Shown: positions 10,153-61,547, numbered from the stretch's first letter. The stretch is 64,000 nt of DNA from Candidatus Poribacteria bacterium (GCA_965208325.1 OZ242326.1:1056001-1120000); one strand, 5' to 3'. The notes: generated by a model from the letters alone, not told the origin. Translations and numbers: made by a program.

Positions 10153-11208
10153 TCATACCGCCTTTTGAAGATGTTGACCGATAACATGCGCCGTAAATTT
10201 TACGATTGACACCACACGCGAGTATTCCATCCGCGTTGGTCCGATCACGCCTATGGTGCCGAGTAAATCGCCTTGAACGCTAAAAGTCGACTGGACGACA
10301 CTGCACATCTCCATTCCTTCACACCTATTTTCGCTGCCGATAAGCACCTGAATGTCAGGACTCTCTTTTTTTGGCGAGAGGAGGTCTGCTACTCGTTCTT
10401 TTTGCTCCAAAAAACGAAACAACGGTTCAATTTGTTCCACTTCCAAAAATTCAGGCTGGCCGAAAAAATTGGAAGTGCCGTTTAGATAAACGTGGATTTC
10501 CCTATCCAGCGAAAAGGTGCTGCGCGCCAGCGTTGCGACAGAATCAGACAGATCCTGATCGAAAACCGCTTTTAGATTTTTATGGCTTTGTGAAATTCGT
10601 TGTATCTCCCCCAAGGACAATCCCGCTAACTTTTCATTCAGAATTCGGCTGATTCGTTTGATATCAGCTTTGGATACGCTTTCACGGATGGAAATCACTT
10701 GATTCTTGACAAGCCCTGAATTCGTAATCAATACGACTACTACCCGCTGGGTATCGAGCGGAATGAGTTCCAATCGCCGTAGAATACCATCATGCAATTG
10801 AGGGCTTAAAGCAACTCCGATGTAATGAGAAATTTGAGATAAAATCTTAGAAGTCTGTTCGACGGTTTCAACAATATCGAGTTCCGATGAGTCGTACCAT
10901 TGTCGAATGAATCTACACTCCTCATCCGTTAACCGTTGAGTTGTCATCATATTGTCGACGTACACGCGATAGCCGAGTTCCGTTGGGATTCGCCCCGCCG
11001 ACGTATGCGGTTGCGTCAAGTAGCCATATTCTCCAAGCTGCGCCATCGTATTCCGAATAGTTGCCGGGCTCAATCTCATGTCACATTGCCGAGCAATCGT
11101 CCGGGAGCTGACAGGCTTCGCTGTCCGATTATAGCATGTAATAATCGCTTCAAGCACCTCGCGTTTTCGGGCATTCAGCACAGCGGTTGTCAATGGCGCC
11201 GCCCCCAT
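10153..11208 (-). CDS. hrcA: Heat-inducible transcription repressor HrcA
   Basis: PVSSR, SPATIRN, QPHTSAGRIPT and IGVIGPTRM motifs. Start placed at ATG 11208 because the ORF-track start (11235) lies inside the CIRCE. Confidence 0.95.
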   Translation of the reverse strand: MGAAPLTTAVLNARKREVLEAIITCYNRTAKPVSSRTIARQCDMRLSPATIRNTMAQLGEYGYLTQPHTSAGRIPTELGYRVYVDNMMTTQRLTDEECRFIRQWYDSSELDIVETVEQTSKILSQISHYIGVALSPQLHDGILRRLELIPLDTQRVVVVLITNSGLVKNQVISIRESVSKADIKRISRILNEKLAGLSLGEIQRISQSHKNLKAVFDQDLSDSVATLARSTFSLDREIHVYLNGTSNFFGQPEFLEVEQIEPLFRFLEQKERVADLLSPKKESPDIQVLIGSENRCEGMEMCSVVQSTFSVQGDLLGTIGVIGPTRMEYSRVVSIVKFTAHVIGQHLQKAV

Positions 11209-11219
11209 CTCTCTTAATG

Positions 11220-11246
11220 TTAGCACTCTTTTCATAAGAGTGCTAA
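11220..11246. promoter_or_regulatory. CIRCE operator (HrcA binding site)
   Basis: Perfect TTAGCACTC-N9-GAGTGCTAA just upstream of hrcA. Confidence 0.97.
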
Positions 11247-11254
11247 ATCGGGTA

Positions 11255-11284
11255 AAGATACCATTTTACCCACCGATGTGTCAA
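11255..11284 (-). promoter_or_regulatory. Sigma70-type promoter of the hrcA-grpE-dnaK-dnaJ operon
   Basis: TTGACA-18 nt-TATCTT with a TGn extension, immediately upstream of the CIRCE. Confidence 0.65.
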
Positions 11285-11421
11285 GCCAAAAGGAAAAGAG
11301 TCACATGCCAGCGTCATCGACACGAACCCTTTCTCTCTGCACCTCGAAGACCAGTTTTAATTTGCGCCGCCTTACCGGCCACGCCCATATAAGTAACACT
11401 GCACCCTATCTGTATGCACAC

Positions 11422-12168
11422 TCATCCATGGACTGCATCTGCGAATCTCTTCATTAACGAGAAGGAGTTTTGCTGTTCAATGACGTTTCCTGTCACAATA
11501 AAGTCCGCCCCGGCGTTTACCTTTGCAACAGCCAACTCCGGCGTCGTGATTCCTCCGCCCACTATGATAGGAATAGTAACGTGTTTGCGAACGGCGCCGA
11601 TTAATTCCTCCGGAACGGGTATTCTTGCGCCGCTGCCCGCCTCAAGATAGATGAACTTCATACCGAGATACTCCGCAGCAAGCGCGTGCGCCCACGCAAT
11701 GTCCAATTTATCACGCGGAAGCGGGGCAGTCCCGCTCATAACTTCAACCGACGTAGCAGTACCACCGTCAATAAGCATATACCCTGTGGATATCGCCTCT
11801 ATACCGCAACGGTGAATTAATGGCGCCGCTTTGACCTGCTCGCCGATTAGAAAATTGGCATTCCGGCCGCTGATTAGGCTTAGGTATAATATGGCATCGG
11901 CATGCTGGGATAGGTGCATAGAGTCCCCGGGGAACACAATGACCGGTAAAGACGTCTCGTCCTTCAAGGCTTTTGCAAACGGGTTGAGGTCATTTGTCAA
12001 GAGGCTGCTCCCCAGCAACAGTGCATCAACTCCTGCTTCTTCCGCTTGATGCGCAACATGCATGCAATCGGCGATGGAATGCCGATCGGGGTCTAAGAGC
12101 ACAATGTAGCCTGCTCTGCATCTTGACAGAACATTCAGTAGGTAATCTAAGGTTGAACCTGATTTCAT
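11422..12168 (-). CDS. Geranylgeranylglyceryl phosphate (GGGP) synthase, group II-like
   Basis: LLDPD, FPG, YLSLISGRN, GYMLIDGG, YLEAGSGA and IIVGGGI motifs of the PcrB/GGGPS TIM-barrel family. Confidence 0.92.
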   Translation of the reverse strand: MKSGSTLDYLLNVLSRCRAGYIVLLDPDRHSIADCMHVAHQAEEAGVDALLLGSSLLTNDLNPFAKALKDETSLPVIVFPGDSMHLSQHADAILYLSLISGRNANFLIGEQVKAAPLIHRCGIEAISTGYMLIDGGTATSVEVMSGTAPLPRDKLDIAWAHALAAEYLGMKFIYLEAGSGARIPVPEELIGAVRKHVTIPIIVGGGITTPELAVAKVNAGADFIVTGNVIEQQNSFSLMKRFADAVHG

Positions 12169-12246
12169 GGGGTTAGGTGTTTGGAGATTCGTTTTTTCAA
12201 ATCTGCTCTCGCCGCCATTGAATCTGATGGAATTAGACCGATTGCG

Positions 12247-13440
12247 TCAGAGCCATCCGGAGCGTATGAGATGTCTCAATTCCAGTAGCAAGCGTGGTTG
12301 GTGCATCAACACCGTCTTAAAAATCTGCATCATGTTGACCTTGTCAGGCGGCATCTTTGACACCACCTCCGCACACTTGTCAAAAAGGTCATCACTGAAC
12401 TTAAGCACACCATCTCGTATTCGGCAGACGTGCTTGAAATTACTGCCAATTTCCTTGTCCCACCGGTTTTGATAAGCGCTCAAAATCTTTGCGGACACAT
12501 CTCCAATTCGGATAGCATCGACCGCCGCGTCGGCGGCAAATTGTCCCGAATACATTGCGTTTGCGACCCCGCCGCCAGAAATAGGATCGCTATGGTGCGC
12601 CGCATCGCCAATCAGCATAATCCCGTCACCCACAATCTTGGGCAGACTATTCCCTACCGGCACACAACCGACGACCTGCGCAAGAATTTTTCCGTGCGGA
12701 AATTTTCGTTTGACGAATTCATTTAGATAGTCGATGGCGAGCTTCCCGCCCTTACCGGAGATTGTCCCGCCGATTCCGATGCCGACATTCGCAATGTCAT
12801 CTCCTTTAGGGAAAACCCAGGCATAGCCTCGCGGCGCAAGCTCGCGGCCAAGGTAAAAATCGCAGAAATCGGGGATAATGCCAATCTTAGAAATTAAGTA
12901 TTGGGCGCAAATGTCCACGTCACGTAAATCGTGTGTGCTATCTATGCCCGCCCACCGCGCCACCTGCGATTCAATTCCGTCGGCAGCGATGACGACCTTC
13001 GCCTTACATGAGTAGTCACGTCCGAAATAACGGAATACCACCCCGTTGACGAAACCGCCATCTGACTTGGAAACGGTCGTCGCCCGTGCTTTAACGATAA
13101 TTTCGGCACCCGCATCCGCCGCCATTTCCGCCAAGACTCGATCGAAAACCTTGCGTTCTAAAACATAACCGGCGCCCGGAAAATGGATTGTGGCGGCGGT
13201 TTCGTTGGGAGAAAAGATTCGAGCGCCGTTAATTTCGCGCGAAACCCACGCCGGATCGGGCTGAATAAACTCGCACAGCGACGCTGTACCAATCCCCTCC
13301 GCTCAACGCACCGGCGCGCCAATTTCCTGACGTTTTTCCAACAACAAGACACGCAAGCTATTTTCTGCGGCAACCTTAGCGGCAATTGCACCCCCAGGGC
13401 CGGCACCGACAACAATGACATCATAGTCCGAGTGAACCAT
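12247..13440 (-). CDS. Geranylgeranyl reductase (digeranylgeranylglycerophospholipid reductase-like), candidate selenoprotein with in-frame TGA at codon 46
   Basis: One frame from ATG 13440 reads [17 protein letters not shown]...[16 protein letters not shown]...[17 protein letters not shown] and joins the ORF-track 295-aa fragment ([21 protein letters not shown]). TGA at 13305-13303; 397 codons in total. Confidence 0.9.
13273..13289 (-). promoter_or_regulatory. Candidate bacterial SECIS hairpin
   Basis: GUACAGC-GUC-GCUGUGC starts 13 nt after the UGA, with the apical-loop G at +21 followed by U. Confidence 0.6.
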
Positions 13441-13658
13441 CAAAAAAGTCCCCGTCCTTCGTACGCTGGGTAATACACCTTACCGTTTCGTTCTAATGCA
13501 AGCACGCCTACCGGGCAACCTTTGATGCATCGCGCACAGTCGGTGCACTTGGGCTGGTCTATTTTCAGATAGATATCAACGAGATCAATGATGTTCTCAG
13601 GACAGACGGCAACACAAGCCCCACAATAACTACAAAGTTCTTCGTCTATAAGAATCAT
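13440..13658 (-). CDS. 2[4Fe-4S] ferredoxin
   Basis: [12 protein letters not shown] and [12 protein letters not shown]; its stop overlaps the reductase start (TGATG). Confidence 0.92.
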
Positions 13659-13769
13659 CGCATGCCTTTCCCGCTTGAGAACGTAATTTCTACAGTGCGA
13701 GTTTCCTAATATTTGGATTCATTTAACGGTTAATGGTCAACTATTTTTCTTATGATTTTGGTATCGAAG

Positions 13770-14591
13770 TTAATTTACCGATTGAAACTGCCGCCGTCGG
13801 ACGTGTTCAAACAGTATTATTCCAGCGGCGACCGCAACGTTCAACGAGGATTGGCCAGGCGCCATAGGAATCTTGACAAGGTTGGTGCAAAGTTGGAGAA
13901 TTTCTTCCCTGATTCCTTCGTTTTCATTTCCCACCACAATCGCCAAGGGGGTACTAAGTTCCAAATCATACAGGCTCGTGTTCGCCTTGGCGGTGGCACC
14001 GAGAATCTCAAATTCAGCCGAAATCAACTGAGGAAAATAATCTTCCGGTGACTCGCAAAATGCCAGTGAACTGCGCCCAACAGCTCCTCTAGCAGCCCGG
14101 ACACAGTTCTTATGGAAGGGGTTTGCGCCTTCTCCGATGAACACGACGGAATCAACTGCCGCCGCTTCAGCGGTGCGCAGCACCATGCCAAGGTTATCCG
14201 GATTGGTGACACTATCGGCGATTAACAGCGTACTCTCAGCCGGCAGGTGAAGATCTGCCGCGTTCTGGTAATTCATCCAAACCGATGCGATCACGGCTGG
14301 AACCGGTCTCGTGCTGGTAATGGTCCCCATTAGTCCGGCGCTAAGCATAAATGGGGCGAATTTTGCTGCGGCGGAATTATTCAGTAATGCAACCCCCCGC
14401 TCATTCGCCAACAGGTCGGGAGTATAAAGGATTTTGTCAACCGGTAACCTGTCATGAACAGCACGATCGACGAGCGTAACGCCTTCGACCACAAATCTGG
14501 ACGCCTTCATTCTCCCGTTTAGTGAGCTAAGTTTGCGAAATTCAGAGATGATAGGATGCTTTTTACTGTTTATAACCGCTCGGTTCGCCAC
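13770..14591 (-). CDS. TrmH/SpoU family RNA methyltransferase
   Basis: NPDNLGMVLRTA, VGNENEG and IPMAPGQSSLNVAVA SPOUT motifs. Confidence 0.9.
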   Translation of the reverse strand: MANRAVINSKKHPIISEFRKLSSLNGRMKASRFVVEGVTLVDRAVHDRLPVDKILYTPDLLANERGVALLNNSAAAKFAPFMLSAGLMGTITSTRPVPAVIASVWMNYQNAADLHLPAESTLLIADSVTNPDNLGMVLRTAEAAAVDSVVFIGEGANPFHKNCVRAARGAVGRSSLAFCESPEDYFPQLISAEFEILGATAKANTSLYDLELSTPLAIVVGNENEGIREEILQLCTNLVKIPMAPGQSSLNVAVAAGIILFEHVRRRQFQSVN

Positions 14592-14597
14592 TTTTGC

Positions 14598-15446
14598 CTA
14601 TGGGGAGGATCCAAGGTAGATTGCCCCCAATCCAATGAAAATGTCCCACTTCATCCATTTTTGAATCTGTGCGCTGTTGGCTCTGGAATCATTCCGCCAA
14701 AGCCGATAGCCTAGATATATTAATACCAAATCCACACCTACGATAACGGTTAAAAGATAATGCCACGAATACCAATTCAGAAAATATGGAATCGGACTGA
14801 ACAATATAACCGCGGCGATAAAGATGAGTGCAATCAGCACGGCAACCCGTTTTCCCCAAACTACAGGAATTGTACGCGCATCGTGCCGGACATCACCCTC
14901 CGTGTCCTCAATGTCTTTAATTATCTCTCTTGCGGTGGTAAACAGTAGCGCAAATACCGCCGGAACGAACGTACCGGAAACAGTCCGCACCGAGGTTCCT
15001 CCTACAATGAAAGTTAAGCCTGTCAGTACCCCAACTAGGAGATTACCGAATAACGGTGTTTGTTTCAAGCAGAACGCGTACAAGACAAGACAACCGGACA
15101 CGGTGACGGTAATTGCCGCAGTATGCAGGTTAACTGTAAACCCAAACAAGATTCCCAGTCCCATCAATGTTATAGAAAACACCATAGCGCCTTGTCGGGA
15201 AATCCTTGCGGACGGAATCGGACGATCGGGTTTGTTAATCCGATCTATCTCGTAGTCACAATAGTCGTTGAGCGCATTGCCCGCCGATAGGAGCAGAAAC
15301 GCCGAACTCGCTGCCAACAACACATTGATATTAGTTACGACGACCCATTCCCCCAACCCGACTGCAAACATCGCTCCGAGATAGACAGAGAAAAAAGCGA
15401 TCAATCCGTTTATTGGACGTGAAAGTTGAAGATAAGCTGTAATCAT
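14598..15446 (-). CDS. Digeranylgeranylglyceryl phosphate (DGGGP) synthase-like UbiA prenyltransferase
   Basis: RPIN, NDYCDYEIDRINKPDRPIPS and AREIIKDIEDTEGD motifs as in archaeal DGGGPS; multiple TM helices. Confidence 0.82.
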   Translation of the reverse strand: MITAYLQLSRPINGLIAFFSVYLGAMFAVGLGEWVVVTNINVLLAASSAFLLLSAGNALNDYCDYEIDRINKPDRPIPSARISRQGAMVFSITLMGLGILFGFTVNLHTAAITVTVSGCLVLYAFCLKQTPLFGNLLVGVLTGLTFIVGGTSVRTVSGTFVPAVFALLFTTAREIIKDIEDTEGDVRHDARTIPVVWGKRVAVLIALIFIAAVILFSPIPYFLNWYSWHYLLTVIVGVDLVLIYLGYRLWRNDSRANSAQIQKWMKWDIFIGLGAIYLGSSP

Positions 15447-15474
15447 TAGGGCAACAGTTTAATGCGTTGGATTG

Positions 15475-16542
15475 TTACGCTTCGCGGCCCGGATATGTGA
15501 TGCCGAATCTAACGGAATAATACCAGCGAACGAAAATTAGGCTTCCAGCGAGCAAAATTATGTAAAATGGGGCTAAAACACAAGCGATAAGTGAAAGAAT
15601 GAGTATACCTGCCCGTGCCGCGAAGATAATAACCCTTCGTTCTCTCCTGAAGTTCATATAAATGAAAGGCGGTAAACAGAGTAATGCGGTAAATAATGGT
15701 ATCATATCTTTGACCCACCATGCGGCCAAAATTGCGCCCACCAATAGCACCAAGCTCAACAAGCAGGATAGCTTGGCGCCTAATATTACGCCGGTCGTAC
15801 GATCTCCGAACTCACTGTCGCCGTTCAAATCCGGGAGCGTCGTGTTGACAAAGGCTGCCCCCACACACAAGGCATAAGGGATTATCCGCCGCAAGGCTTC
15901 GCCGTTCATCGGCGCTGCTAACCCCCAGCCGATTAAAAATGCGATGCCGCCATAGCCGGCGGCGTTGGCTAGAAGGTCGAGGAAGGGTCTCCCTTTTAAT
16001 CGAACTGGACGAATGGAATAAACGACGCCAAGTAAGATTGAAAGCCCAATTAGGACGAGATAGCTCAGGTTGTTTCTAAACCAGAAACCTGCCCAAACCA
16101 CGGCAGAAACAAGTAACATGCCGGCTTCCAACACAAGCAGCCGAATTTTCACATGTCCCTGCGCAACGAGAAAGAGTTTGTTGTTTGCTGCGTCTGTTTC
16201 TTTGTCACAGATTTGGTTGATGATGTAAATTGCCCCCATCAGCATAGAGTACAAACAGAGGGTACCCAGCAACTCATGATTGGGACGAACCAAAATATTA
16301 AATTTCGGCAGAAATGCGAGCTGTACTGCCCTCAATCCTTCGTATGTAGAAGTGTCAGACAATGCGCCATAATAGCCAAGCAACACAAGGGTCCAAACCG
16401 GCAGCAGCAGTGTTGGACGAAGGACAATTATATAATCCAAAAGATGTATCGCGCTGCGTTTCGTGGGTTGCAGCTTAGTTTGAGTGAGTGAATTTCCCAT
16501 TCCAAATCCGACTGCGCCTGAGATGCCGCGTCCACAATACAT
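15475..16542 (-). CDS. Second UbiA-family prenyltransferase, substrate unknown
   Basis: LRP, NQICDKETDAANNK, YSIRPVRLKGRP and LPDLNGD motifs; about 8-9 TM helices; alternative start ATG 16500. Confidence 0.8.
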   Translation of the reverse strand: MYCGRGISGAVGFGMGNSLTQTKLQPTKRSAIHLLDYIIVLRPTLLLPVWTLVLLGYYGALSDTSTYEGLRAVQLAFLPKFNILVRPNHELLGTLCLYSMLMGAIYIINQICDKETDAANNKLFLVAQGHVKIRLLVLEAGMLLVSAVVWAGFWFRNNLSYLVLIGLSILLGVVYSIRPVRLKGRPFLDLLANAAGYGGIAFLIGWGLAAPMNGEALRRIIPYALCVGAAFVNTTLPDLNGDSEFGDRTTGVILGAKLSCLLSLVLLVGAILAAWWVKDMIPLFTALLCLPPFIYMNFRRERRVIIFAARAGILILSLIACVLAPFYIILLAGSLIFVRWYYSVRFGITYPGREA

Positions 16543-16564
16543 GGGAATTCTTGCGTATGACGCA

Positions 16565-17401
16565 TCACGCGTAACGTAGTACGTTTAAGTATGCAAAACG
16601 ATTGATGAGTCTGTTTTTTAAGCACTCAAATTTAAAACGGCGTCTTCCCAATAAACCGAGTTTTCCCTGGAAAGATCGAAAGGTGTCACATCGATAGATT
16701 CCCATCCGCGGGAAACGGTACATCGCTTCAAGTGATAACTCCCGGACTGGATCCAAGCTAAACGCGATGCGGTATCCGGCAGATTTCACCAAATCCAATG
16801 TCTCCGCATTCACACTTCCATACGGATATGCGAAACTCCGAACGGGGCGGCCTAGAATATGCTCGAGCCGGTATTTAGATTCCTCGAGCTCTGCGTTTGC
16901 CTCGACCCGGCTGCAATGCGTTAAGAAGCGGTGGTGCAATCCGTGGGACCCAAACCCAATCCCATTTTGGACGAGTGATTTAATTTGGCTTTCGCTTAGA
17001 TGTTTAGGGCGTTTTAAACTGCGCTGCACATCCCACTCATTTAACCGTCCAATGTATGCCGCAATCATAAATACAGTTGCCGTTAAGCCGTATTTTTTCA
17101 GGATCGGGTAGGCGAAATTATAGAAGCTTTCATAGCCGTCATCGAAGGTAATGAGGATTGGATTACATGGCAATGCGGAATGAGATGAGATGAAATGAAT
17201 TAAGCTATCCGGGGTGATAGCGGTATACCCCTGCGCCGCAATAAATCGCATCTGGGACTCAAAAGTTTGCGGAGAAATAGAGTTTACCCCAAGTTCGAAT
17301 TCAACGTCCACTTGATGATAAGCCAGAACAGGAATACACCATTTCATTGGGAGGGGAGTTAGGTGTTTTGAAACTTTTCTACGACCCAGTCGATTCCTCA
17401 T
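16565..17401 (-). CDS. Polysaccharide deacetylase (CE4/NodB-like)
   Basis: PVLAYHQ, ITFDDGY, GSHGLHH and FAYPYG; start may be ATG 17347. Confidence 0.88.
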   Translation of the reverse strand: MRNRLGRRKVSKHLTPLPMKWCIPVLAYHQVDVEFELGVNSISPQTFESQMRFIAAQGYTAITPDSLIHFISSHSALPCNPILITFDDGYESFYNFAYPILKKYGLTATVFMIAAYIGRLNEWDVQRSLKRPKHLSESQIKSLVQNGIGFGSHGLHHRFLTHCSRVEANAELEESKYRLEHILGRPVRSFAYPYGSVNAETLDLVKSAGYRIAFSLDPVRELSLEAMYRFPRMGIYRCDTFRSFQGKLGLLGRRRFKFECLKNRLINRFAYLNVLRYA

Positions 17402-26701: not shown

Positions 26702-27803
26702 TTAAGTTTGACTTCTCTTTTTCAAGTAACTTTCGATAAAATTATCTAAATTGCCATCCATGACTGCGTCAATGTTTCCCGTTTCAACATTAGTCCGTAA
26801 ATCTTTTACTAGCCGATAGGGATGAAACACATAGGATCGGATTTGATTGCCAAAATTGATATCCGGGCGTTCTCCCTGCAGCTTCGTAATCTCTTCGCGG
26901 CGGCGCATCTGATAATGTTCGTAGACCCGTGAACGCAATACTTTCATTGCCAATTCCCGGTTCTTATGTTGCGACCGCTCATTCTGGCATTGGGCGACAA
27001 TTCCTGTTGGAATGTGAGTCATCCGGACTGCGGAATCTGTTCGGTTGACATGCTGTCCGCCGGCGCCGCTTGATCGATAAGTATCAATTCGCAGATCGGC
27101 GGGTTGGATGTCAATATCAACAGTCTCACCGATTTCAGGAGAAACGGCAACCGCGGCGAATGAAGTGTGGCGGCGGTGATTAAAATCGAATGGCGAGAGA
27201 CGGACAAGGCGGTGGACACCGACTTCTGCGCTGAGGTAACCGTAGGCATAGTCGCCTGAGACCAAAACGGTCGCACTCTTGATTCCCGCTTCTTCGCCGG
27301 GCATCAGTTCTATGGTTTCGGTTTGGTAGCCGCGGCGCTCACACCAACGCGTATACATTCGCAAGAGCATGAACGCCCAGTCCTGGGATTCTGTGCCGCC
27401 GGCACCGGGGTGAATAGTCAAGATAGCATTACTTATGTCATGCTTACCATTAAGCAGGAGCATGGTTTCTACCTGCTCAATTTGCTCCTCAATACCATCT
27501 AGATTTCTACTAATTTCTCCGCTTACACTCTCATCATTTTCTTCGATTGCCAATTCAAGTAGAATCTGAATATCTTCGAGCTGGGAGTAAAGTTTCCCAA
27601 ATTGTCCAATTTCTTCCTGTAAATTTGCGAGCCGCTGCGTGACTTTTTGGGCGTGTTGAGAGTTATTCCAGAAACCCGGTTCTGACGCCTCCCTTTGAAG
27701 TGCGTCTATCTCTTCCGCTTTACTCGCAATGTCAAAGACACCCCCTGAGATCGAGGAGTCGATTAGAGACCGCTTGGATATTGAGTTTCAAATCAGCTAA
27801 CAT
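26702..27803 (-). CDS. prfB: Peptide chain release factor 2 with programmed +1 frameshift
   Basis: ATG 27803, 23 codons, then AGGGGG-TGT-CTT-TGA-C. The +1 frame continues DIASKAEEID...FWNN into the SPF and GGQ motifs. Confidence 0.96.
27731..27746 (-). promoter_or_regulatory. RF2 frameshift site (internal SD + CTT TGA C)
   Basis: AGGGGGTGTCTTTGAC on the minus strand. Confidence 0.93.
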
Positions 27804-40703: not shown

Positions 40704-40751
40704 ATTCACCCGCGCTCCATGCGTCGCACCTACAAGAGGGAATGGCTGAAA

Positions 40752-43583
40752 ATGAAATTCTGGTCAAAGCTATGCTATGCCGCGTTTCTCGCCTTGTTAA
40801 TTAACAGCACTTACAAGATTAGCTTCGGAGAACCGACAAAATTCTACATTGCGAATGGGTTAATTCACATTCTCCTTGGGGTTGCCTTGATTATCCCATT
40901 CGTCATCTATGCGTGCAGGCATTTTACCGCTTTGACTGCAGCTGGAAAAAGCGCGGTAGTCTTGCTTGGGCTTGGAGCAGTTTCGGGCGGATGCTTGATG
41001 AATGTCGGCGCGACGACACCCTATCGTTGGCTGCTCATGCTCCACATTATCACCGTGACGCTCGGCACGATTCTGTTTATCGGCGACCTGTTCTACCGTT
41101 CAAGACTGCACGCCGCTACGATTCAATTCAAGAAGGCAGCGAACACGGGAGTAGTTGTCCTCGGAATCGTCTTGCTTTTCCCATTCGCAGCGAAAATTAT
41201 CCAGCATTACCTGCCAAACCCGGACTACCTGGTCCAGAATCCGCTGTCGCCGCCAACCAGCATGTATGAGGAAGGGGGCGGTACCGACGGCCCATTTTTC
41301 CCCGGCTCTGTCGAAACATACTCCGGCGATATTATCCCAACTGACTTCTTCTTGACATCTGACTCCTGCGCCGAGAGCGGATGTCATCCCGACATTTATG
41401 AGCAGTGGAACGAGTCGGCGCACCATTTCGCTTCCTTCAACAATCAGTGGTACCGAAAATCAATAATGTATATGCAAGATATGAACGGGATTCAGCCGTC
41501 CAAATGGTGCGGCGGGTGTCACGATCCCGCCATACTGCTCAACGGCGTGATGGACTTCCCAATCCGTGAGAATTTGCACACCCCAGCGGCCCAAGCCGGG
41601 CTCTCGTGTACGGCATGCCATTCGATGGAGAAGGTGAAGGACACAATGGGCAATAATGGGTACATTATCAAATATCCGCCCCTGCATGACATCGCCGCTA
41701 GCGATAATCCAATCGTTCGGAAACTCCATAATTACCTCATCCGCCTCGACCCGGAACCGCACAAAAAGAGTTTTCTCAAGCCTTTCCACCGCGATAACAC
41801 CGCGGAATTTTGCTCGACGTGCCACAAAGTACACCTTGACGAACCCGTCAACAATTTCCGCTGGTTCCGCGGTTTTAATGACTACGACCAATGGCAATCC
41901 AGCGGCGTTTCCCATCAGGGGGCGCTGTCGTTTTACTATCCTGAGAAAGCAAAGAAGTGCACAGACTGCCACATGCCGCTTGTCGCTTCAAATGATGCTG
42001 GAAACATAAACGGTAAAGTTCACAATCACCGGTTTCCGGGCGCAAATACGGCATTGCCTTTAGTAAACAAACATGACGAGCAGCTCAAGTTAGTTACCGA
42101 ATTTCTGCAAGATAATCAAGTAACAGTCGATATCTTTGCCTTGAGTCCGGCGACGCCGATTCAACTATACGGCGATTCCAGCGCCGCTGGCGGCCCCTCC
42201 GTCTTCAGTATGACGGGGGAAGAGAGTGACGTAGGCCGAGCGGTAGGCACTGTGACAGACGTCGCGAAGATTGTTGCCCCAATTGACCAATCTAATGCAG
42301 CCGTCAAACGCGGCGATTCGGTTCGCGTCGATGTCGTGGTACGCACAAGAGGCGTGGGACACCGGTTCCCCGCCGGAACAATTGATGCTTTCGATGTCTG
42401 GGTGGAGTTGAAGGCGACCGACGAAAACGGCAAGATCCTCTTCTGGAGCGGTATGATTGAGGCAGAAGACGGAAACGGCCCTGTTGATGAAAGCGCGCAT
42501 TTCTACCGCGCTTACATGTTGGATGAGCACGGAAACCTTATCAATAAACGTAATGCGTGGGCGACCCGGACGGTTCTCTACGCTCGCACCATTCCACCCG
42601 GCGCGGCTGACACGGTTCACTACAGGCTTTCCATTCCCGATGATTGCGGGGACAAGATTTACCTGCACGCAAAGCTGAATTATCGCAAGTTCAACTGGTG
42701 GCACACCCAATGGGCGTACGCGGGAGTTCGCGATCCTGACGACACCGATTTTAAATATGGTAAAGGGTACGATGATGGGCGCTGGGTGTTTACGGGCGTC
42801 ACATCAGATGTCGCCGGCAAAATCAAAGCTATTCCCAATCTACCAATCGTCGTGATGGCTGAGGACACGGCGTCCCTAAACGTGATTGACGCCGATACCG
42901 TACCGTCCGAACCTAAAGTCATCGCTGGAGAAAATGATCGTGAGCGATGGAACGACTACGGCATCGGCCTCTTCCTTCAAGGCGATCTCAAAGGCGCAGA
43001 AGCGGTGTTCAAGAAGGTCACTGAGATTGATTCGGAATACCTGGACGGCTGGGTAAACATCGCTCGATGCCGCATTCGGGAAGGGAACATGAGTGGCGCA
43101 GACGAAGTGCTCAATAAGGCTTTTGAAATTCAGCAAAATTTGCCGCCGGAAAACTCGCATCGCGCGAAAGTACATTACTTTTTTGCCTTAGTCAAAAAGG
43201 CCTACGGTGAGTACGACGCCGCTCTTCATCAGTTGCGTTTAGCTGCCGCGCAATTCCCGCGCGACAGAAAAGTGCGCAATGAAATTGGCCGTCTGCTGTA
43301 CCTCCAACGCAAATATGAGGATGCACTGGTTGAATTTCAGAAAACCGTGGAGGTTAATCCAGAGGATTTGGACGCGCACTACAACATGATGCTCTGTTAT
43401 CGCGCGCTGAAGAATCAAGTAATGGCGGCGAAAGAAGAAAAGTTGTACCGGCGATTCAAAGAGGATGAAGCCGTCGAATCCATTACGGGTCCTGTGCGCC
43501 GCACAAATCCTTTCGCCAATATAGAGCGCCAACAGATTCACGAACATACATCCGCATGGAGAAGCGGCACCACTGGATACTAA
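40752..43583 (+). CDS. Membrane-anchored multiheme c-type cytochrome with C-terminal TPR repeats
   Basis: N-terminal TM helices; CGGCH, CTACH, CSTCH and CTDCH plus atypical CAESGCH; TPR-like helices at the C-terminus. Alternative start 40719. Confidence 0.82.
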   Translation: MKFWSKLCYAAFLALLINSTYKISFGEPTKFYIANGLIHILLGVALIIPFVIYACRHFTALTAAGKSAVVLLGLGAVSGGCLMNVGATTPYRWLLMLHIITVTLGTILFIGDLFYRSRLHAATIQFKKAANTGVVVLGIVLLFPFAAKIIQHYLPNPDYLVQNPLSPPTSMYEEGGGTDGPFFPGSVETYSGDIIPTDFFLTSDSCAESGCHPDIYEQWNESAHHFASFNNQWYRKSIMYMQDMNGIQPSKWCGGCHDPAILLNGVMDFPIRENLHTPAAQAGLSCTACHSMEKVKDTMGNNGYIIKYPPLHDIAASDNPIVRKLHNYLIRLDPEPHKKSFLKPFHRDNTAEFCSTCHKVHLDEPVNNFRWFRGFNDYDQWQSSGVSHQGALSFYYPEKAKKCTDCHMPLVASNDAGNINGKVHNHRFPGANTALPLVNKHDEQLKLVTEFLQDNQVTVDIFALSPATPIQLYGDSSAAGGPSVFSMTGEESDVGRAVGTVTDVAKIVAPIDQSNAAVKRGDSVRVDVVVRTRGVGHRFPAGTIDAFDVWVELKATDENGKILFWSGMIEAEDGNGPVDESAHFYRAYMLDEHGNLINKRNAWATRTVLYARTIPPGAADTVHYRLSIPDDCGDKIYLHAKLNYRKFNWWHTQWAYAGVRDPDDTDFKYGKGYDDGRWVFTGVTSDVAGKIKAIPNLPIVVMAEDTASLNVIDADTVPSEPKVIAGENDRERWNDYGIGLFLQGDLKGAEAVFKKVTEIDSEYLDGWVNIARCRIREGNMSGADEVLNKAFEIQQNLPPENSHRAKVHYFFALVKKAYGEYDAALHQLRLAAAQFPRDRKVRNEIGRLLYLQRKYEDALVEFQKTVEVNPEDLDAHYNMMLCYRALKNQVMAAKEEKLYRRFKEDEAVESITGPVRRTNPFANIERQQIHEHTSAWRSGTTGY

Positions 43584-45124: not shown

Positions 45125-45925
45125 TCAAGCCAAGTATTTCCCGGGCGATCTGGTGCGTTCATATGCAGCTTCAGGATCGCGCTTAAGGATAGCCTCCGGC
45201 ACCTCATCGGTCCAATACTTCGGCGCAGTGCACGGGCGATCGTGCCATCCTAGCAACAGCGTGCGCCGCTGTGTACTGCGGTTACCACGCGCCGCATGCA
45301 GCACGCGCCCCTCACCAATGACCAGAGAACCTGCGGTCGCCGGCACATCAATGGCGTCGGGATGATCGTAAAACATATGCGGATCGCTCTCTGAAACGTA
45401 ATATGCCCCTTGTTCATGAGCGGGCGTCAGGCGGTCGTGCAGCGGAATGCGGTTGAGATGCGTCCCGGGAATCACTCGAAAACACCCGTTTTCTATGCTC
45501 GTATCCACCAGATAATAGGATAGGAATATATACTGTACCCATGGCGCCGTGCTTATCGGGTCGTTCCAGCGCATCCAGTCTTGGTGCCAATAGAGCGGCG
45601 GCGCACCCGGCGGTTTACTGAGGATAATGAATCCGCCGTGGGAATAGAAATCGTCCAGTTGCATCGCGTTAAGTACCTCCCACGTCGGTTCCCAGTGAAT
45701 TAACCGGTCAATTACCGGTTCCGCAGTGCCCCGTACCGACAGATCAGAACCCTGGTACTTCCATTCCGGAGGGTGCGCTACAGAATCAAGCAACCGGTTG
45801 GTCTCCCGCCGCAACTCGTCAAGAAAATCATCGGACAATAACTCCTCCACCACGCAATACCCATCCTTGATTAACTGGTTGCGCTTCTCAAGCGCGGTAT
45901 CAGGTTCCACGATAACCGGGTTCAC
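45125..45925 (-). CDS. Phytanoyl-CoA dioxygenase (PhyH) family Fe(II)/2OG oxygenase
   Basis: DGYCVVE, WHQD, ENGCFRVIPGTH and LHAARGNRS..RR. Confidence 0.9.
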   Translation of the reverse strand: MNPVIVEPDTALEKRNQLIKDGYCVVEELLSDDFLDELRRETNRLLDSVAHPPEWKYQGSDLSVRGTAEPVIDRLIHWEPTWEVLNAMQLDDFYSHGGFIILSKPPGAPPLYWHQDWMRWNDPISTAPWVQYIFLSYYLVDTSIENGCFRVIPGTHLNRIPLHDRLTPAHEQGAYYVSESDPHMFYDHPDAIDVPATAGSLVIGEGRVLHAARGNRSTQRRTLLLGWHDRPCTAPKYWTDEVPEAILKRDPEAAYERTRSPGKYLA

Positions 45926-53937: not shown

Positions 53938-55404
53938 ATGCGCACCGCCATCCAAAACCAACCCGAGCAGATTATCGAAAGCCGCCTTATTGAAATTCGG
54001 CGGCGAATGCACTTGAACTCGTTCCTGAGCCATCTCGCGCGTTTTGGGTTCTGGGGGCTTCTCATTGCCGGAATCCTTCTCATCCTCAATCGGCTCTTCC
54101 CGCTGCCGATTCCAGTCAGTCTTGCTGCACCGCTTCCCCTCGCCGTCGGATTCGCCGCAGCGCTGTGCCTTTCCCTGTTGCGCAAATCAAATCTTTTCGC
54201 CGTTGCGCGCGCCGTGGACACCCGTCTAAATCTAAAGGAACGCCTCAGTACCGCGCTTGAAGCCATCCATAGCGCGAAGTCGGACGATAACTTTCTCCGT
54301 TTGCAAATTAAAGATGCAGGAGATGTTGCTCGGGCGATCGACTCGGGGGCGTCCTTTCCGTACACCTCCCCGCCAACGCTCAAGTGGATCCCAATCGCCC
54401 TCTTGCTCATCGCCTCCGCTTTTGTGATTCCTCAAATGTATGAACCGCCGCCTCCGCTGTCCGCAGCCGAGCGCGCAGCCATAAATCAAGCCGCAGAAAC
54501 GCTCGAATCAGAGCGAAACGCGGTTCCCGATACCGACCTCGCGATTAAAATACGGGATACCATCGGAAAATTGCGTCATAGTGACATTAATGCCAATCGG
54601 TCGCAAGCGGAGTTGAGCGCACTGCGTGATGAAATCCGAGCCAAAAAAAGCCTGGTTGAAAGTGGAATAGCTAGACTTGCAAAGGCGGTTTCTGATACGG
54701 ACGAACTGTCCAAACATTTCAAAGGCAACACCGCGGGCGAAATCGCCTCGGACATAGAAAAACTCGCGGCGCAGATGAATGATCTTACGCCCGCACAACG
54801 GGCGGAATTGGAGACGATGCTGAAAAAGATTGCCCAAAGTCTCGGTGATAACCCCGCGATGGAAAATCTGATGAATCTGTTGCCGGAGCTTCAGTCAGAA
54901 GCCGTGAGTGCCGAAATGCTTCAGCGAATCGCGCAGGCACTCCTTCAAAGTACAGATGAAATTGCCCAGTTGGATGAGCTGTTGCAACAAATAAGGACGA
55001 ATCGCCGTAACATTGCGTTAGCCGGTATAGAGTTGGATCGAAAATCACCGAGCGTGGCGGGCGGCGGTAGCGGCTCCGGCGAAGTTTCAGATGCAGCGGA
55101 ATCTCCAGATTCAGTGAGTGGGGCAAAACCCCAGCCGCTCAATCCCCCAACGGACAATCCCTTAACCAATCTCGAACTCACAGCTCCCCCATCCGACTCG
55201 CAGGCGTTTACACAGGTCTACGTTGATGAAGACCCCACCGGCGACGGTGAGCCTACCTACATGCCCTACCGCGAAGTCTATCTCCACGCCCAACAAGCCT
55301 ACGCCCAAGCCATAGAAAGAGATGAAATACCAGTAAAATATCGGGAACAAGTCAAGGCTTACCTAGAAGCCATCGCCAACCTAGATAACAAAGACTCACA
55401 ATAA
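53938..55404 (+). CDS. Membrane-anchored coiled-coil hypothetical protein (DUF4175-like architecture)
   Basis: N-terminal TM helices, LKERLSTALE, long helical region, Gly/Ser linker, C-terminal IPVKYREQVKAYL. Confidence 0.65.
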   Translation: MRTAIQNQPEQIIESRLIEIRRRMHLNSFLSHLARFGFWGLLIAGILLILNRLFPLPIPVSLAAPLPLAVGFAAALCLSLLRKSNLFAVARAVDTRLNLKERLSTALEAIHSAKSDDNFLRLQIKDAGDVARAIDSGASFPYTSPPTLKWIPIALLLIASAFVIPQMYEPPPPLSAAERAAINQAAETLESERNAVPDTDLAIKIRDTIGKLRHSDINANRSQAELSALRDEIRAKKSLVESGIARLAKAVSDTDELSKHFKGNTAGEIASDIEKLAAQMNDLTPAQRAELETMLKKIAQSLGDNPAMENLMNLLPELQSEAVSAEMLQRIAQALLQSTDEIAQLDELLQQIRTNRRNIALAGIELDRKSPSVAGGGSGSGEVSDAAESPDSVSGAKPQPLNPPTDNPLTNLELTAPPSDSQAFTQVYVDEDPTGDGEPTYMPYREVYLHAQQAYAQAIERDEIPVKYREQVKAYLEAIANLDNKDSQ

Positions 55405-57023: not shown

Positions 57024-58583
57024 GTGAACACCAACCAATCCGAAATCGAACGGCGGCTGTGGAGCGCCGCCGATGAACTCCGCGCCAATTCACGGCTGCG
57101 GCCGTCTGAATATTCAACGCCGGTTCTCGGTCTAATCTTCCTTCGCTACGCCGACCACAGGTTCACGCAGACAGAATCCGAAATAAACCGCGAACCGACC
57201 GCGGGGCGGCGCAGACGCGCAGACAAAACCGAATTTCAGGCGCGCGGCGCATTCTACCTCCCAGAGACCGCACGATTCAATCATCTCCTAAACCTACCGG
57301 AGAGCGAAAACATCGGGCAAGCGATCAACAACGCCATGAGGGCAATCGAAGAGGAAAACAGACAGGTTGACGGCGTCCTGCCCAAGACCTACAACCGGCT
57401 CGAAAAGGCCACGCTGCTTGAACTGCTCCGCATCATGGAACGTATTCCGATGGACATTGAGGGCGACGCCTTCGGCAAAGTCTACGAATATTTCCTCGGC
57501 AACTTCGCCATGACCGAAGGCGCGCGCGGCGGCGAGTTTTTCACCCCAACCTCGCTCGTTAAGCTAATCGTCGAAATCATCGAACCGTTCCAAGGACGCA
57601 TCCTCGACCCCGCCTGCGGCTCCGGTGGCATGTTCGTCCAGAGCGCCGATTTCGTGCAGCGGCACCGCGAAAACGGTAACGGGCAAATCAGCATCCACGG
57701 AATCGAACGCGTCGCTGAGACTATCCGCCTGTGCAAGATGAACCTCGCCGTCCACGGACTCGAAGGCGACATCAAGCAGGCAAATAGCTACTACGATGAC
57801 GCGCACCGCGCCTTTGAAAAATTCGACTTCGTCATGGCGAATCCCCCCTTCAACGTTGACCGCGTGGACAGGGAACGTATCAAAGACGACCCGCGTTTCC
57901 CGTTCGGCATGCCCCGTGTGGACAACGCCAACTATCTCTGGATTCAACTCTTTTTCAGCACGCTTAACACCTTCGGACGCGCCGGCTTTGTAATGGCGAA
58001 CTCCGCAGCCGACGCCCGCGCCTCAGAGCTGGAAATCCGCCGGCAATTTATCGAATCCCGCGCCGTTGATGTCATGGTCAGCATTGGGTCTAACTTCTTC
58101 TACACCGTTACGCTGCCCTGCACCCTCTGGTTCTTCGACAAGTCGAAAGCGCACGGCGATAGGCGGGATACTGTGTTGTTCATCGATGCCCGCCACATTT
58201 ATCATCAAGTCAGCCGCGCACATCGCGAGTTTACACCCAAACAACTGGAGTTTCTAGCCAACATTGTCCGGCTGCATCGCGGCAAACCGCCCGAAAACCG
58301 GCACGACAGTGCGGAACTGATGGGGTCGAAGTTCACCGATGGCGCGTATGCCGACGTGCCCGGTCTCTGTAAAGTCGCGTCAATTTCGGAAATCGAAGCG
58401 CAAGGCTGGAGCCTCAACCCCGGACGATACGTCGGCGTCGCCGATCGCGAGGCGGATGCCTTCGACTTCGCCGAGCGGTTGGGCGAACTCAACGAGGAAC
58501 TCGAAATCCTGAACGCCGAAGCGCATCAGTTAGAAGAACGTATCGGTGAGAATGTAACCATGATTTTGGAGGAGGCGAGGTAA
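57024..58583 (+). CDS. hsdM: Type I restriction-modification methyltransferase subunit M
   Basis: [23 protein letters not shown] (motif I), ANPPF (motif IV) and SLNPGRYVG. Confidence 0.95.
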
Positions 58584-58585
58584 GT

Positions 58586-59017
58586 TGTTAGAATCAGGAT
58601 ACTCAGGATAGGAGGATTTTCAGGATGATCGAGGATAAACTGACATATCAAATCATCGGTTGCGCAATGGAAGTACATAAAGCCCTTGGGAACGGTTTTC
58701 AGGAAGTAATTTATCAGCGGTGTCTCGCAATTGAGTTGGACAGGGCTAGGCTCAGTTTTGGTCGAGAGGTGGAGCAACCTATCTTTTATCGGGGTGTTGA
58801 AATAGGAACTAGAAGAGCCGATTTTATTGTCGCCAATCGTGTCGTCGTTGAATTAAAAGCTTTGACTGCCCTTGAGGACGTTCATATTGCACAAGCTAAA
58901 AACTATGTGGTTGCTTACAACTTTGAAATCGGGCTTCTGATTAATTTCGGTGCGATTCGTTTAGAATACAAACGCATATTCAACGATAAAAAGAACCCCG
59001 TGAATCCAAATTCAGAC
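58586..59017. mobile_element. Inverted-repeat-bounded unit carrying a GxxExxY gene
   Basis: Left end TGTTAGAATCAGGATACTCAGGATAGGAGGATTTTCAGGAT; degenerate inverted right end AACCCCGTGAATCCAAATTCAGAC. Confidence 0.55.
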
Positions 59018-59032
59018 GAGGAGCCGAAATGA
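58625..59032 (+). CDS. GxxExxY protein (PD-(D/E)XK nuclease-like)
   Basis: IIGCAMEVHKALGNGFQEVIYQ, RADFIV, VVELKA, QAKNY and GLLINFG. Confidence 0.92.
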   Translation: MIEDKLTYQIIGCAMEVHKALGNGFQEVIYQRCLAIELDRARLSFGREVEQPIFYRGVEIGTRRADFIVANRVVVELKALTALEDVHIAQAKNYVVAYNFEIGLLINFGAIRLEYKRIFNDKKNPVNPNSDEEPK

Positions 59033-59054
59033 TTTCGGACGACGGGGTGTGAAT

Positions 59055-59127
59055 GGTCAGAATCAGGCTACCAGGATACTCAGAATGACGACAGTGACAG
59101 CCAATCCTGTAAATCCTGATTCAGACA
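59055..59127. repeat. Short non-coding copy of the CAGGAT inverted-repeat element
   Basis: GGTCAGAATCAGGCTACCAGGATACTCAGAAT...AATCCTGTAAATCCTGATTCAGACA. Confidence 0.7.
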
Positions 59128-59527
59128 GAATTCTGCAACATTTTAAAAGGAGGCGATGTAAAACCAGAAATATCCAAAATTTTGTGAGGTTTTGTGACAT
59201 ACACGGAAGTTTCGGCAAAACTGATGATCCGCTAAAACCGCATCACAAGCGGATTTTAGCGAATTTTACAAGTCCCATTTTCCACGTCACAGACCGCCTC
59301 ACACATTGTGACAAAGTGTGACGTGAGACTAAAATTATGATAACGCCAAAAATCCGCCGAACCCTTATGATAAGCGGACTAACACGGATTTCACTGATGA
59401 AAAATGATATGTCACACTCAACCTCACATAATGTGACATCGTGTGCGTTTTTGTGACATACGATATTGATGGATAGGCGGGTCACAACCGAGAAAAAATT
59501 ACTACTTCTGTAGAGGAGACTTATAGC

Positions 59528-59814
59528 ATGGATAATGACCGAAAAAAAACACCACCAGCCGCAGCGCTTGTTACGATTCGCAAGTCGCGGCTGTCACCGC
59601 ACGTGCACAAAAGGCGATTGCTGTACTCGACGGGTTGCTCGACAGCGAGGACGAAAAAATCCGCCTTCAAGCCGTTAGTTTACTCCTCAAGTTAACACCT
59701 TCGCTCAAAGAAGCCAATCCTAAATCAACTACGCAGGATTTGAGGGTGTATAGGGAGCTTAGCGATCTTTACAAGCCAATCGGATTGGAGCCCAAATTCC
59801 GCGAAGAAAAATAA
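59528..59814 (+). pseudogene. Small helical hypothetical gene split at an A8 run
   Basis: GAGGAG SD plus ATG 59528. A -1 shift at A8 (59542-59549) opens an 88-codon frame (..AIAVLDGLLDSEDEKIRLQAVSLLLK..) ending at TAA 59814. Confidence 0.45.
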
Positions 59815-59915
59815 AACACAGAGCACCACCCTGAACCCTGCATTTCCCTTAACAACGCGGTCAAGGGTTATGTTCATGTGTTTATAAGGAGGTTCTTGGT
59901 AGGTTGGGGTGCAAA

Positions 59916-60023
59916 TTGTCTGAATCAGGATACTCAGGATTATATGATTTTCAGGATAATAAACGGCAGCGGATAGAAAAACTCCTGTAAATCCTTTAAT
60001 CCGGTAAATCCTGATTCAGACAA
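59916..60023. mobile_element. 108-bp MITE-like element
   Basis: Perfect 16-bp terminal inverted repeats TTGTCTGAATCAGGAT / ATCCTGATTCAGACAA, with internal ~9-bp CAGGAT/ATCCTG subrepeats. Confidence 0.75.
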
Positions 60024-60052
60024 AATGTAACGATGATTTCGGAGTAAGCGGT

Positions 60053-61474: not shown

Positions 61475-61502
61475 TTCGCAATAAACCAATGTGTGATAAA
61501 AT
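61475..61502 (+). promoter_or_regulatory. Extended -10 promoter for the ATPase operon
   Basis: TTCGCA-16 nt-TAAAAT with TGn. Confidence 0.4.
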
Positions 61503-61547
61503 ATCTTCGTCTTATTGCCGTACACTAGCGAGGAAAGGTGCCCACCC

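Follow-up and report, generated by a model that had tools for sequence, protein, structure and literature searches.

The window analysed here, a stretch of 64,000 nucleotides (OZ242326.1:1056001-1120000), belongs to the genome of a Candidatus Poribacteria bacterium of the sponge-associated type (GCA_965208325.1), a candidate phylum which NCBI places outside the Fibrobacteres-Chlorobi-Bacteroidetes (FCB) group. The genome consists of a single contig of 4,707,648 bases and is 95.6% complete. Between 11422 and 16542 it carries a lipid block of six closely packed minus-strand genes, among them genes for a geranylgeranylglyceryl phosphate synthase (GGGPS), a prenyltransferase resembling digeranylgeranylglyceryl phosphate synthase (DGGGPS), a geranylgeranyl reductase (GGR) and a ferredoxin. 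We consider it likely that this block encodes the central part of an isoprenoid ether-lipid pathway of the archaeal type, with a reductase that would be read by recoding of an in-frame UGA as selenocysteine (Sec). The genes and features of the locus are:

15475-16542, minus strand: UbiA2, a second, divergent UbiA-family prenyltransferase, 355 amino acids (PF01040, 64.5 bits)
14598-15446, minus strand: UbiA1, a DGGGPS-like UbiA prenyltransferase, 282 amino acids (best models NF009523, NF009521 and NF009522)
13770-14591, minus strand: SpoU-family RNA 2'-O-methyltransferase, RlmB/TrmH-like (PF00588, 118.9 bits)
13440-13658, minus strand: 2x[4Fe-4S] ferredoxin, 72 amino acids (Fer4 families)
12247-13440, minus strand: GGR of the digeranylgeranylglycerophospholipid (DGGGPL) type, 397 codons with UGA at codon 46, predicted selenoprotein
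13303-13305, minus strand: in-frame TGA, codon 46 of GGR, predicted Sec codon at the position of the active-site cysteine
13260-13302, minus strand: hairpin resembling a selenocysteine insertion sequence (SECIS) directly 3' of the UGA (upper stem 13273-13289, apical loop GUC at 13280-13282)
11422-12168, minus strand: group II GGGPS, 248 amino acids (PF01884, 142.7 bits)
11220-11246, plus strand: CIRCE operator of the hrcA-grpE-dnaK operon, marking the end of the lipid block

A sequence-only reading of the window had described co-oriented GGGPS, GGR, ferredoxin, trmH/SpoU and UbiA genes, and all five were confirmed at the stated positions, on the minus strand. UbiA2, which also belongs to the conserved block, has to be added to its gene list, and the in-frame TGA of GGR did not figure in its description.

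The reductase gene and its in-frame UGA

Under translation table 11, the GGR gene appears only as an open reading frame (ORF) of 295 amino acids (12247-13134), whose product starts at position 107 of the Thermoplasmatales reductase model. The true coding sequence (12247-13440) begins with the ATG at 13440, runs through EIGAPVR to the TGA at 13303-13305 and continues in the same frame to 12247, which gives 397 residues if TGA is translated as U. The read-through protein scores 230 bits against TIGR02032 (cut-off 158.8) and 89.2 bits against PF22578 (GGR_cat; cut-off 27), and it contains the YxWxFP and GGG motifs (named as in passages of PMC6309074). It lies under the cut-offs of the archaeal DGGGPL reductase equivalogs NF041160 (295 versus 780), NF041080 (171.1 versus 580) and NF041385 (99.5 versus 700), all of which are lineage-specific models. 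The best solved relative is the DGGGPL reductase of Thermoplasma acidophilum (3oz2; 263.6 bits), with which it aligns from end to end, and position 46 falls on chain residue 45 of this structure. Passages in PMC6309074 describe an active-site cysteine behind the isoalloxazine ring (Cys47 in SaGGR, Cys45 in TaGGR) as a critical redox modulator, and Cys47 is called essential for catalysis in a passage of PMC10821996. The poribacterial gene has TGA in place of the codon for this conserved cysteine; if codon 46 is read as Sec, the chemistry would be analogous. A Cys-type GGR paralogue was not found in the genome, where two further matches are weak and short. An ORF of 88 amino acids without a family match (13158-13424) lies off-frame over the GGR start.

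A tblastn search with GGR against 92 loci showed a stop at query position 46 in all 28 poribacterial loci and cysteine at the same position in all 64 other homologues, which come from Chloroflexota, Ignavibacteria, LCP-89 and many archaea (34-45% identity). Among the poribacterial loci, 24 coding sequences are distinct, and every one of them has TGA at this codon, never TAA or TAG. In a phylum-wide survey of 176 genomes, 56 of which had a match at E <= 1e-60, a single TGA was present in 39 of 39 site-covering matches from the order to which the window belongs (one of them also with a TAG), and no stop was present in 13 of 13 site-covering matches from other poribacterial orders or classes; the remaining four matches miss the site. 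Purifying selection acts before and after the TGA alike, with a dN/dS of 0.044 for codons 1-45 (estimable for 96 of 210 pairs) and of 0.049 for codons 47-397 (44 of 210 pairs, the rest being saturated).

The hairpin that follows the UGA has an upper stem of 7 bp (13289-13273) closing the GUC loop, which starts 20 nt after the UGA. According to a section of PMC13188914, bacterial SECIS (bSECIS) elements have a stem of 4-16 bp, a loop of 3-9 nt with a G in the first two loop positions, a distance of 16-37 nt from the UGA and a minimum free energy of -7.5 kcal/mol or lower, properties shared by all 23 distinct hairpin sequences. When 24 sequences (23 distinct) are aligned without gaps, 88.2% of the hairpin cells are paired, versus 28.6-52.7% when the 3' partners are slid. 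Compensatory double changes occur in the upper-stem pairs 33-47 (CG to UA, four sequences), 34-46 (AU to GC, six sequences) and 38-42 (CG to AU or UA, ten sequences), and both the observed covariation score and the number of double-changed cells were reached by none of 500 shuffles. The double changes shift amino acids in step, for example from threonine with cysteine to alanine with histidine, as expected if RNA pairing is what is kept. Over the 45 nt after codon 46, the Sec genes have a mean folding energy of -14.5 kcal/mol (z = -1.32, n = 23) and the Cys genes one of -8.8 kcal/mol (z = -0.23, n = 64). An Rfam scan of 11000-16700 (E up to 1) returned a single snoRNA match, which was below the threshold, and no match at the hairpin.

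The genome also encodes the machinery for Sec insertion. The genes selA (588.7 bits) and selB (373.5 bits) are adjacent, tRNA-Sec (77.5 bits) lies just after selB, and selD (376.8 bits) is located outside the window at G000:C1:4481278-4482201 on the minus strand; all sel scores exceed their cut-offs. Among the 41 genomes most closely related to this one, selB is present in 40, the exception being a genome that is 80% complete. As selD itself contains one in-frame TGA, SelD is probably also a selenoprotein in this genome, and Poribacteria are listed among the phyla with Sec-containing hydrogenases in a passage of PMC13582414. An alternative genetic code was rejected, because TGA otherwise acts as a normal stop codon: 20 of the 51 crude ORFs of the window end with it, as does the ferredoxin gene, and prfB contains a UGA frameshift site. 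The latter is a classic +1 site (AGGGGG-N-CTT-TGA-C, window ~27725-27745, minus strand), owing to which the called prfB ORF (26702-27553) is without its N-terminus.

Taken together, the conservation of TGA at the cysteine site, the bSECIS-type hairpin, the selection acting on both sides and the presence of selA, selB, tRNA-Sec and selD indicate that GGR is very probably a selenoprotein with Sec at the position of the active-site cysteine.

In protein searches, the close hits of 283-346 residues are truncated gene calls of the Sec-containing GGR. Full-length forms have 395-449 residues (56-67% identity), and natural ferredoxin-GGR fusions with an N-terminal ferredoxin domain have 465-480 residues (50-55% identity; P0070, P0073, P0097, P0103). 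All 13 aligned full-length or fused forms, including the four fusions, have cysteine at the site, and two fused and two full-length Cys forms are named Candidatus Poribacteria by NCBI. Two genomes from other classes of Poribacteria (G069, G070) also have open frames of 475-477 amino acids matching GGR. In a carefully calculated tree (42 rows), the Sec sequences form one clade (support 100/99) nested in a ladder of Cys sequences, the whole group being supported by 99/98. Since the Sec clade is nested among Cys forms with any root outside the group, cysteine would be the ancestral state and the switch to Sec would have occurred once. When metagenomes were scanned for E-I-G-x-P-x-R-TGA-[A/G]-E-[G/A], 35 stretches matched, of which 26 are Sec genes of the poribacterial type (70-84% identity) and eight are chance matches without GGR. 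The remaining one, on contig L203 (109-1260, plus strand), encodes a GGR that is 44% identical and likewise has TGA at this site. In the tree its neighbours are the Cys forms of LCP-89 and Ignavibacteria (100/99), and a hairpin of its own follows approximately 15 nt after the UGA. This single contig suggests a second, independent change from cysteine to Sec in the L203 lineage.

Enzymes of the block and their distribution

The assignment of the three lipid enzymes to archaeal ether-lipid types, proposed in the sequence-only reading, is borne out by their best solved relatives, which are 4jej for GGGPS, 6m31 for UbiA1 and 3oz2 for GGR. GGGPS exceeds the curated cut-offs of NF003198 (274.7 bits, cut-off 247) and TIGR01769 (210.7 bits, cut-off 161.55). 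It scores 181.7 bits against 4jej, 172.9 against 4mm1 and 155.9 against 6nke, which are solved GGGPS of group II, versus 31.6 bits against 2f6u (group I) and 24.2 against the heptaprenylglyceryl phosphate synthase 4nae. In a tree of 33 rows obtained by a quick search, for which comparison sequences were drawn from 28 named genomes holding the nearest GGRs, the poribacterial GGGPS form a clade (SH-aLRT 99) within a group of Ignavibacteria, LCP-89 and one Micrarchaeota sequence (support 100), apart from the remaining archaeal sequences.

For UbiA1, the next-best NCBIfam models (EboC, 94 bits; ChlG, 93.2 bits) are well behind those of the DGGGPS type, and the best solved relative is the Methanocaldococcus jannaschii DGGGPS 6m31 with 131 bits, versus 51.9 bits for chlorophyll synthase. 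Both Asp-rich motifs are kept, namely NDxxDxxxD and a second Asp-rich stretch that aligns with 6m31. In a tree of 49 rows which sampled only the best UbiA hits of the same 28 genomes, the UbiA1 clade (99) is sister to proteins of LCP-89 and Ignavibacteria (98) among the archaeal best UbiA hits, two of which sit beside GGGPS, and the best hits of Chloroflexota form a distant clade. The DGGGPS-like assignment made earlier thus stands, UbiA1 grouping with archaeal and FCB DGGGPS-like proteins and away from the Chloroflexota UbiA.

UbiA2 forms a separate long-branch clade in the same tree and has intact Asp-rich motifs. It is found in 18 of the 41 related genomes, exclusively in GGGPS-positive ones, and adjoins UbiA1 in the loci examined. 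The Atlas clusters nearest to it consist of unnamed UbiA proteins from WOR-3, Bacteroidota and Zixiibacteriota, and a sequence search against the PDB returned chlorophyll synthase only (28.8 bits). A UbiA2 homologue of 30% identity lies directly upstream of a ferredoxin-GGR gene in an LCP-89 bacterium (L061).

The TGA stop of the ferredoxin gene overlaps the GGR ATG (13440) by one base, and the ferredoxin is presumed to be the electron donor of GGR. In 76 of the 92 loci, many of them archaeal, GGR is preceded on its own strand by a ferredoxin homologue at a distance of no more than 400 nt, and the natural ferredoxin-GGR fusions agree with the link shown by this placement. The sequence-only reading had counted the reductase and its electron donor in one cluster as going beyond the two-gene GGGPS/DGGGPS arrangement; a ferredoxin directly upstream of GGR is common in archaea too. 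The SpoU methyltransferase scores 114.7 bits against TIGR00186, under the cut-off of 160.15. Its gene is not at this position in several poribacterial loci, in which UbiA1 directly adjoins the ferredoxin gene; we therefore rejected the methyltransferase as an unlikely member of the pathway, and it is probably a passenger gene.

Across the 41 related genomes, GGGPS is present in 25 and the DGGGPS-like UbiA in 24, the one without it being an assembly of 910 contigs. Intact Sec-containing GGR genes occur in 19 genomes, all of them GGGPS-positive, and broken or partial copies in three more; no GGR orthologue was found in any of the 16 genomes lacking GGGPS. In one genus of 16 species the lipid genes are restricted to a single species. 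The order lpxD-deacetylase-UbiA2-UbiA1-SpoU-ferredoxin-GGR-GGGPS-hrcA recurs in three congeneric closed genomes (L033, L034, L036) with 73-100% protein identity, and the same gene order is seen in the poribacterial families f1, f3 and f4, in all three of which GGR directly adjoins GGGPS. In family f2, the ferredoxin-GGR pair is apart from GGGPS and DGGGPS, and in some poribacterial loci the deacetylase is not at this position. A chimeric contig, which the sequence-only reading had named as a possible flaw, was rejected because the locus lies on a single 4.7-Mb contig, the GC content across the block is steady (0.485-0.504) and the gene order is repeated in the congeneric genomes.

A proposed archaeal-type lipid pathway and competing readings

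In the pathway that we propose, geranylgeranyl diphosphate (GGPP) would be supplied by the methylerythritol phosphate pathway and a short-chain prenyl synthase encoded elsewhere in the genome, and GGGPS would join it to glycerol phosphate. UbiA1 would attach the second chain. The bacterial CdsA may then act in place of CarS, and bacterial head-group enzymes would complete the phospholipid. The 2x[4Fe-4S] ferredoxin, probably co-translated with GGR by translational coupling, would reduce the flavin adenine dinucleotide (FAD) of GGR, which would saturate the chains. UGA 46 would be decoded as Sec by SelB and tRNA-Sec recognising the hairpin about 20 nt downstream, and Sec46 behind the flavin would take the role of the archaeal cysteine as the double bonds are reduced one by one. 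The first four steps are drawn from homology and the Sec step from sequence signatures. As a guess, Sec might be used because the selenol is the more reactive group at low redox potential.

The genome was searched for further pathway genes, as had been suggested along with the sequence-only reading. IspH, one CdsA and PlsC-family acyltransferases are encoded outside the block, as are two prenyl diphosphate synthases, one of which is best described by short-chain/GGPP-synthase models; neither reaches an equivalog cut-off. A glycerol-1-phosphate (G1P) dehydrogenase was not found in the genome, in which the best NF002022 score among the five Fe-ADH_2 hits (three alcohol dehydrogenases, AroB and one protein resembling GldA) is 80.5 bits versus a cut-off of 413; CarS was not found in it either. 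Given these two negative results, both the origin of the backbone and the activation step are assumptions of the scheme. PlsY (PF02660) was not found in the genome as well, to which we give no weight, given that PlsC-family acyltransferases, CdsA and Lnt are present; the retention of these enzymes indicates that acyl lipids are made in addition. A reference gene for tetraether synthase (Tes) was sought beside GGR in four archaeal loci, where the six large ORFs scanned encode KaiC-like, TldD, CoaBC, SMC and helicase proteins and one product without a match. For Poribacteria, PMC11868695 reports homologues of Tes in 10 of 29 metagenome-assembled genomes.

Several observations weigh against the proposed pathway and its Sec-containing reductase. 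Besides the missing G1P dehydrogenase and CarS, UbiA1 remains below the DGGGPS equivalog cut-offs of NF009523 (245.7 versus 269), NF009521 (231.7 versus 296) and NF009522 (175.4 versus 353), and three genomes (G028, G037, G040) have GGGPS and DGGGPS and no GGR. The closest non-poribacterial GGRs are found in Chloroflexota (G041-G044, G049, G050, G052, G054), each with an upstream ferredoxin, and PcrB/GGGPS was found in none of these eight genomes, which implies that this type of GGR can serve other isoprenoids. Damaged GGR copies exist as well: one loses the frame (L046), one is split and has extra stops (G029:C2:1265194-1266383), one has an extra TAG (G163:C136:31529-32719) and one is a 60-residue remnant (G026:C20:68680-68862); these could reflect decay or assembly error. 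With respect to the hairpin, the number of pairs with any double change was matched by 351 of 500 shuffles and that of further pair types by 499 of 500, and the 81-nt stretch of the window itself barely folds better than its shuffles (z = -1.11). RNAalifold, applied to the 24-sequence alignment, did not recover the hairpin and proposed a different, weak consensus (-9.05 kcal/mol); despite this result we retained the hairpin because of the pair counts and the slid controls. Finally, the Sec genes form one clade, and counts among them are therefore not independent trials.

The genes of the block might be active and yet produce a minor, specialised prenyl-glycerol lipid instead of a bulk archaeol-type membrane phospholipid, for example an anchor or envelope component tied to lpxD, the deacetylase and UbiA2, comparable to the heptaprenylglyceryl phosphate of Bacillus PcrB. 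Such a role would fit the position of the block behind bamA-skp-lpxD and the polysaccharide deacetylase without a clear terminator, the confinement of UbiA2 to GGGPS-positive genomes, the lack of G1P dehydrogenase and CarS among the genes found, and the retained CdsA, PlsC-family acyltransferases and Lnt, with which acyl lipids would also be made. However, GGGPS is far closer to solved GGGPS than to heptaprenylglyceryl phosphate synthase (181.7 versus 24.2 bits), a DGGGPS-like enzyme and a GGR resembling DGGGPL reductases are both present and co-distributed with it, and the deacetylase is not a constant neighbour in other poribacterial loci, so that we regard a minor lipid as the rather unlikely product.

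Even less probable is that GGR has a different isoprenoid as its substrate, for instance free GGPP, a polyprenol carrier or the side chain of a quinone, and that its adjacency to GGGPS is incidental. GGRs are described as promiscuous in a passage of PMC10821996, no PcrB/GGGPS gene was found in the eight genomes of the Chloroflexota relatives, and the ferredoxin-GGR pair stands apart in family f2; against this, full or partial orthologues among the 41 related genomes are confined to those with GGGPS (0 of 16 without it), and the two genes are direct neighbours in families f1, f3 and f4. Finally, the shortened products of the gene callers (283-346 amino acids) and the few damaged copies might be taken to mean that the UGA is read as a standard amino acid (cysteine or tryptophan, by a near-cognate tRNA) or is a true stop in a split or dead gene, which is highly improbable in view of a dN/dS near 0.05 in a single frame for both the 45-residue FAD-binding start and the rest, of a codon that is always TGA and always at the cysteine position in 24 distinct sequences, and of the conserved hairpin that follows the SECIS rules in a genome with the full Sec machinery.

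The archaeal-type pathway with a Sec-containing GGR is thus the reading that we prefer. More tentatively, and with appreciable doubt, it might be extended to a selenium-dependent saturation of ether lipids confined to one order, in which cysteine was replaced by Sec once and Sec was kept order-wide, with a second such change in an FCB-like lineage, in a diderm bacterium that has lipopolysaccharide (LPS) and no recognisable G1P dehydrogenase.

Comparison with known systems and surroundings of the block

The pathway itself resembles the one published for Candidatus Cloacimonetes, as far as the sections of the respective papers that we used describe it. Like the set of Cloacimonetes and other FCB bacteria (PMC7852524; Coleman et al., PMC6431249), the poribacterial one comprises a group II GGGPS, a DGGGPS-type UbiA and a euryarchaeal-like GGR, with a bacterial CdsA and without CarS or G1P dehydrogenase, and the poribacterial GGGPS and UbiA1 are placed next to FCB-type proteins (Ignavibacteria, LCP-89) in our trees. 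Passages of Villanueva et al. (ISME J, PMC7852524) report euryarchaeal-like GGRs in metagenome-assembled genomes of Ca. Cloacimonetes, which likewise lack CarS and G1P dehydrogenase; the authors argue that CdsA takes over from CarS there and leave the origin of the backbone open. That having the reductase goes beyond what was known, as the sequence-only reading had it, is therefore not supported as it stands. In contrast to the Cloacimonetes set, the locus described here belongs to another phylum (the word Poribacteria occurs 0 times in the main texts of PMC7852524 and PMC6431249), its block holds all steps including ferredoxin and GGR behind bamA-skp-lpxD, and it contains a second UbiA and a UGA in place of the cysteine codon of GGR. 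The GGGPS/DGGGPS pair of Cloacimonetes has been expressed in Escherichia coli, whereas the activity of the poribacterial enzymes is predicted from sequence.

Archaeal GGRs with an upstream ferredoxin (T. acidophilum, 3oz2; Sulfolobus acidocaldarius, 3atq/4opc) belong to the same family and share the YxWxFP and GGG motifs, 3oz2 aligns over the full length, and the ferredoxin gene is likewise found directly upstream in the poribacterial locus. The Methanosarcina acetivorans GGR with its ferredoxin (Isobe et al. 2014, as cited in passages of PMC7852524 and PMC6309074) is a further archaeal system of this kind. Unlike the archaeal enzymes, to which it is 34-43% identical, the poribacterial GGR has a UGA-encoded residue 46 and is found in a diderm bacterium. 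As in known bacterial selenoproteins (described in sections of PMC13188914 and of the deep-Sep paper PMC12013277), UGA is at a redox-active cysteine site with Cys homologues, a hairpin with a G in the apical loop follows within 16-37 nt, and selA, selB, selC and selD are present. The enzyme family is different, and no NCBIfam selenoprotein-subtype model matched GGR. We found no report of a Sec-containing GGR in the titles and abstracts of the literature on selenocysteine and geranylgeranyl reductase; the terms geranyl and isoprenoid occur 0 times in the main text of the 2026 selenoproteome review PMC13188914, and geranyl and lipid 0 times in that of PMC12013277. The locus points to a probable selenoprotein family of which we found no earlier report. 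Literature on Poribacteria together with GGGPS or geranylgeranylglyceryl phosphate comprised two general papers on evolution, which mention Poribacteria with regard to taxonomy or cell compartments. Sponge symbionts and their ether lipids are the subject of a preprint of 2026, which treats the elb, agps and mss routes in Poribacteria and in which the term GGGP occurs 0 times.

With this locus, a candidate phylum outside the FCB group joins the bacteria which carry archaeal ether-lipid enzymes, and the closed 4.7-Mb genome removes the worry of bin contamination. If our reading is true, GGR would be the first selenoenzyme of membrane-lipid or isoprenoid biosynthesis, and saturated ether lipids of the isoprenoid type would be built by a diderm that has LPS and in which no G1P dehydrogenase is recognisable. 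Since gene callers cut the genes to 283-346 residues, surveys will score the poribacterial GGR as absent or fragmentary. The natural pairs of Sec and Cys forms offer a probe for the role of this residue beside the flavin, and the ferredoxin-GGR pair represents a simple test system for selenium dependence.

The bacterial setting reported in the sequence-only reading was confirmed, with lpxD, skp, bamA, hrcA-grpE-dnaK, CIRCE, mur genes and lnt all being found. Upstream of the block and on the same strand are a polysaccharide deacetylase, lpxD, skp and bamA, with no clear terminator in between, and further along the window follow a LolCD-like ABC pair, lysS, prfB, lnt and the dcw genes mraW-ftsI-murE-murF-ddl-mraY. 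Downstream of the block, a sigma-70-like promoter (11284-11255) and the CIRCE element precede hrcA-grpE-dnaK; the element at 11220-11246 matches the consensus perfectly, and 0 chance matches are expected. Elsewhere in the window, a 488-amino acid ORF without a Pfam match is located at 53938-55404 (plus strand), and a protein of 954 amino acids, encoded at 40719-43583 (plus strand), combines TPR repeats with a stretch weakly resembling cytochrome c554. A defence-type island at 57024-63725 (plus strand) comprises the M and S subunits of a type I restriction-modification system, a PD-(D/E)XK nuclease, an AAA_21/AbiEii-like ATPase and a PIN-domain protein. A protein of the PhyH (phytanoyl-CoA dioxygenase) family is encoded at 45125-45925 (minus strand), in a genome that possibly makes phytanyl chains.

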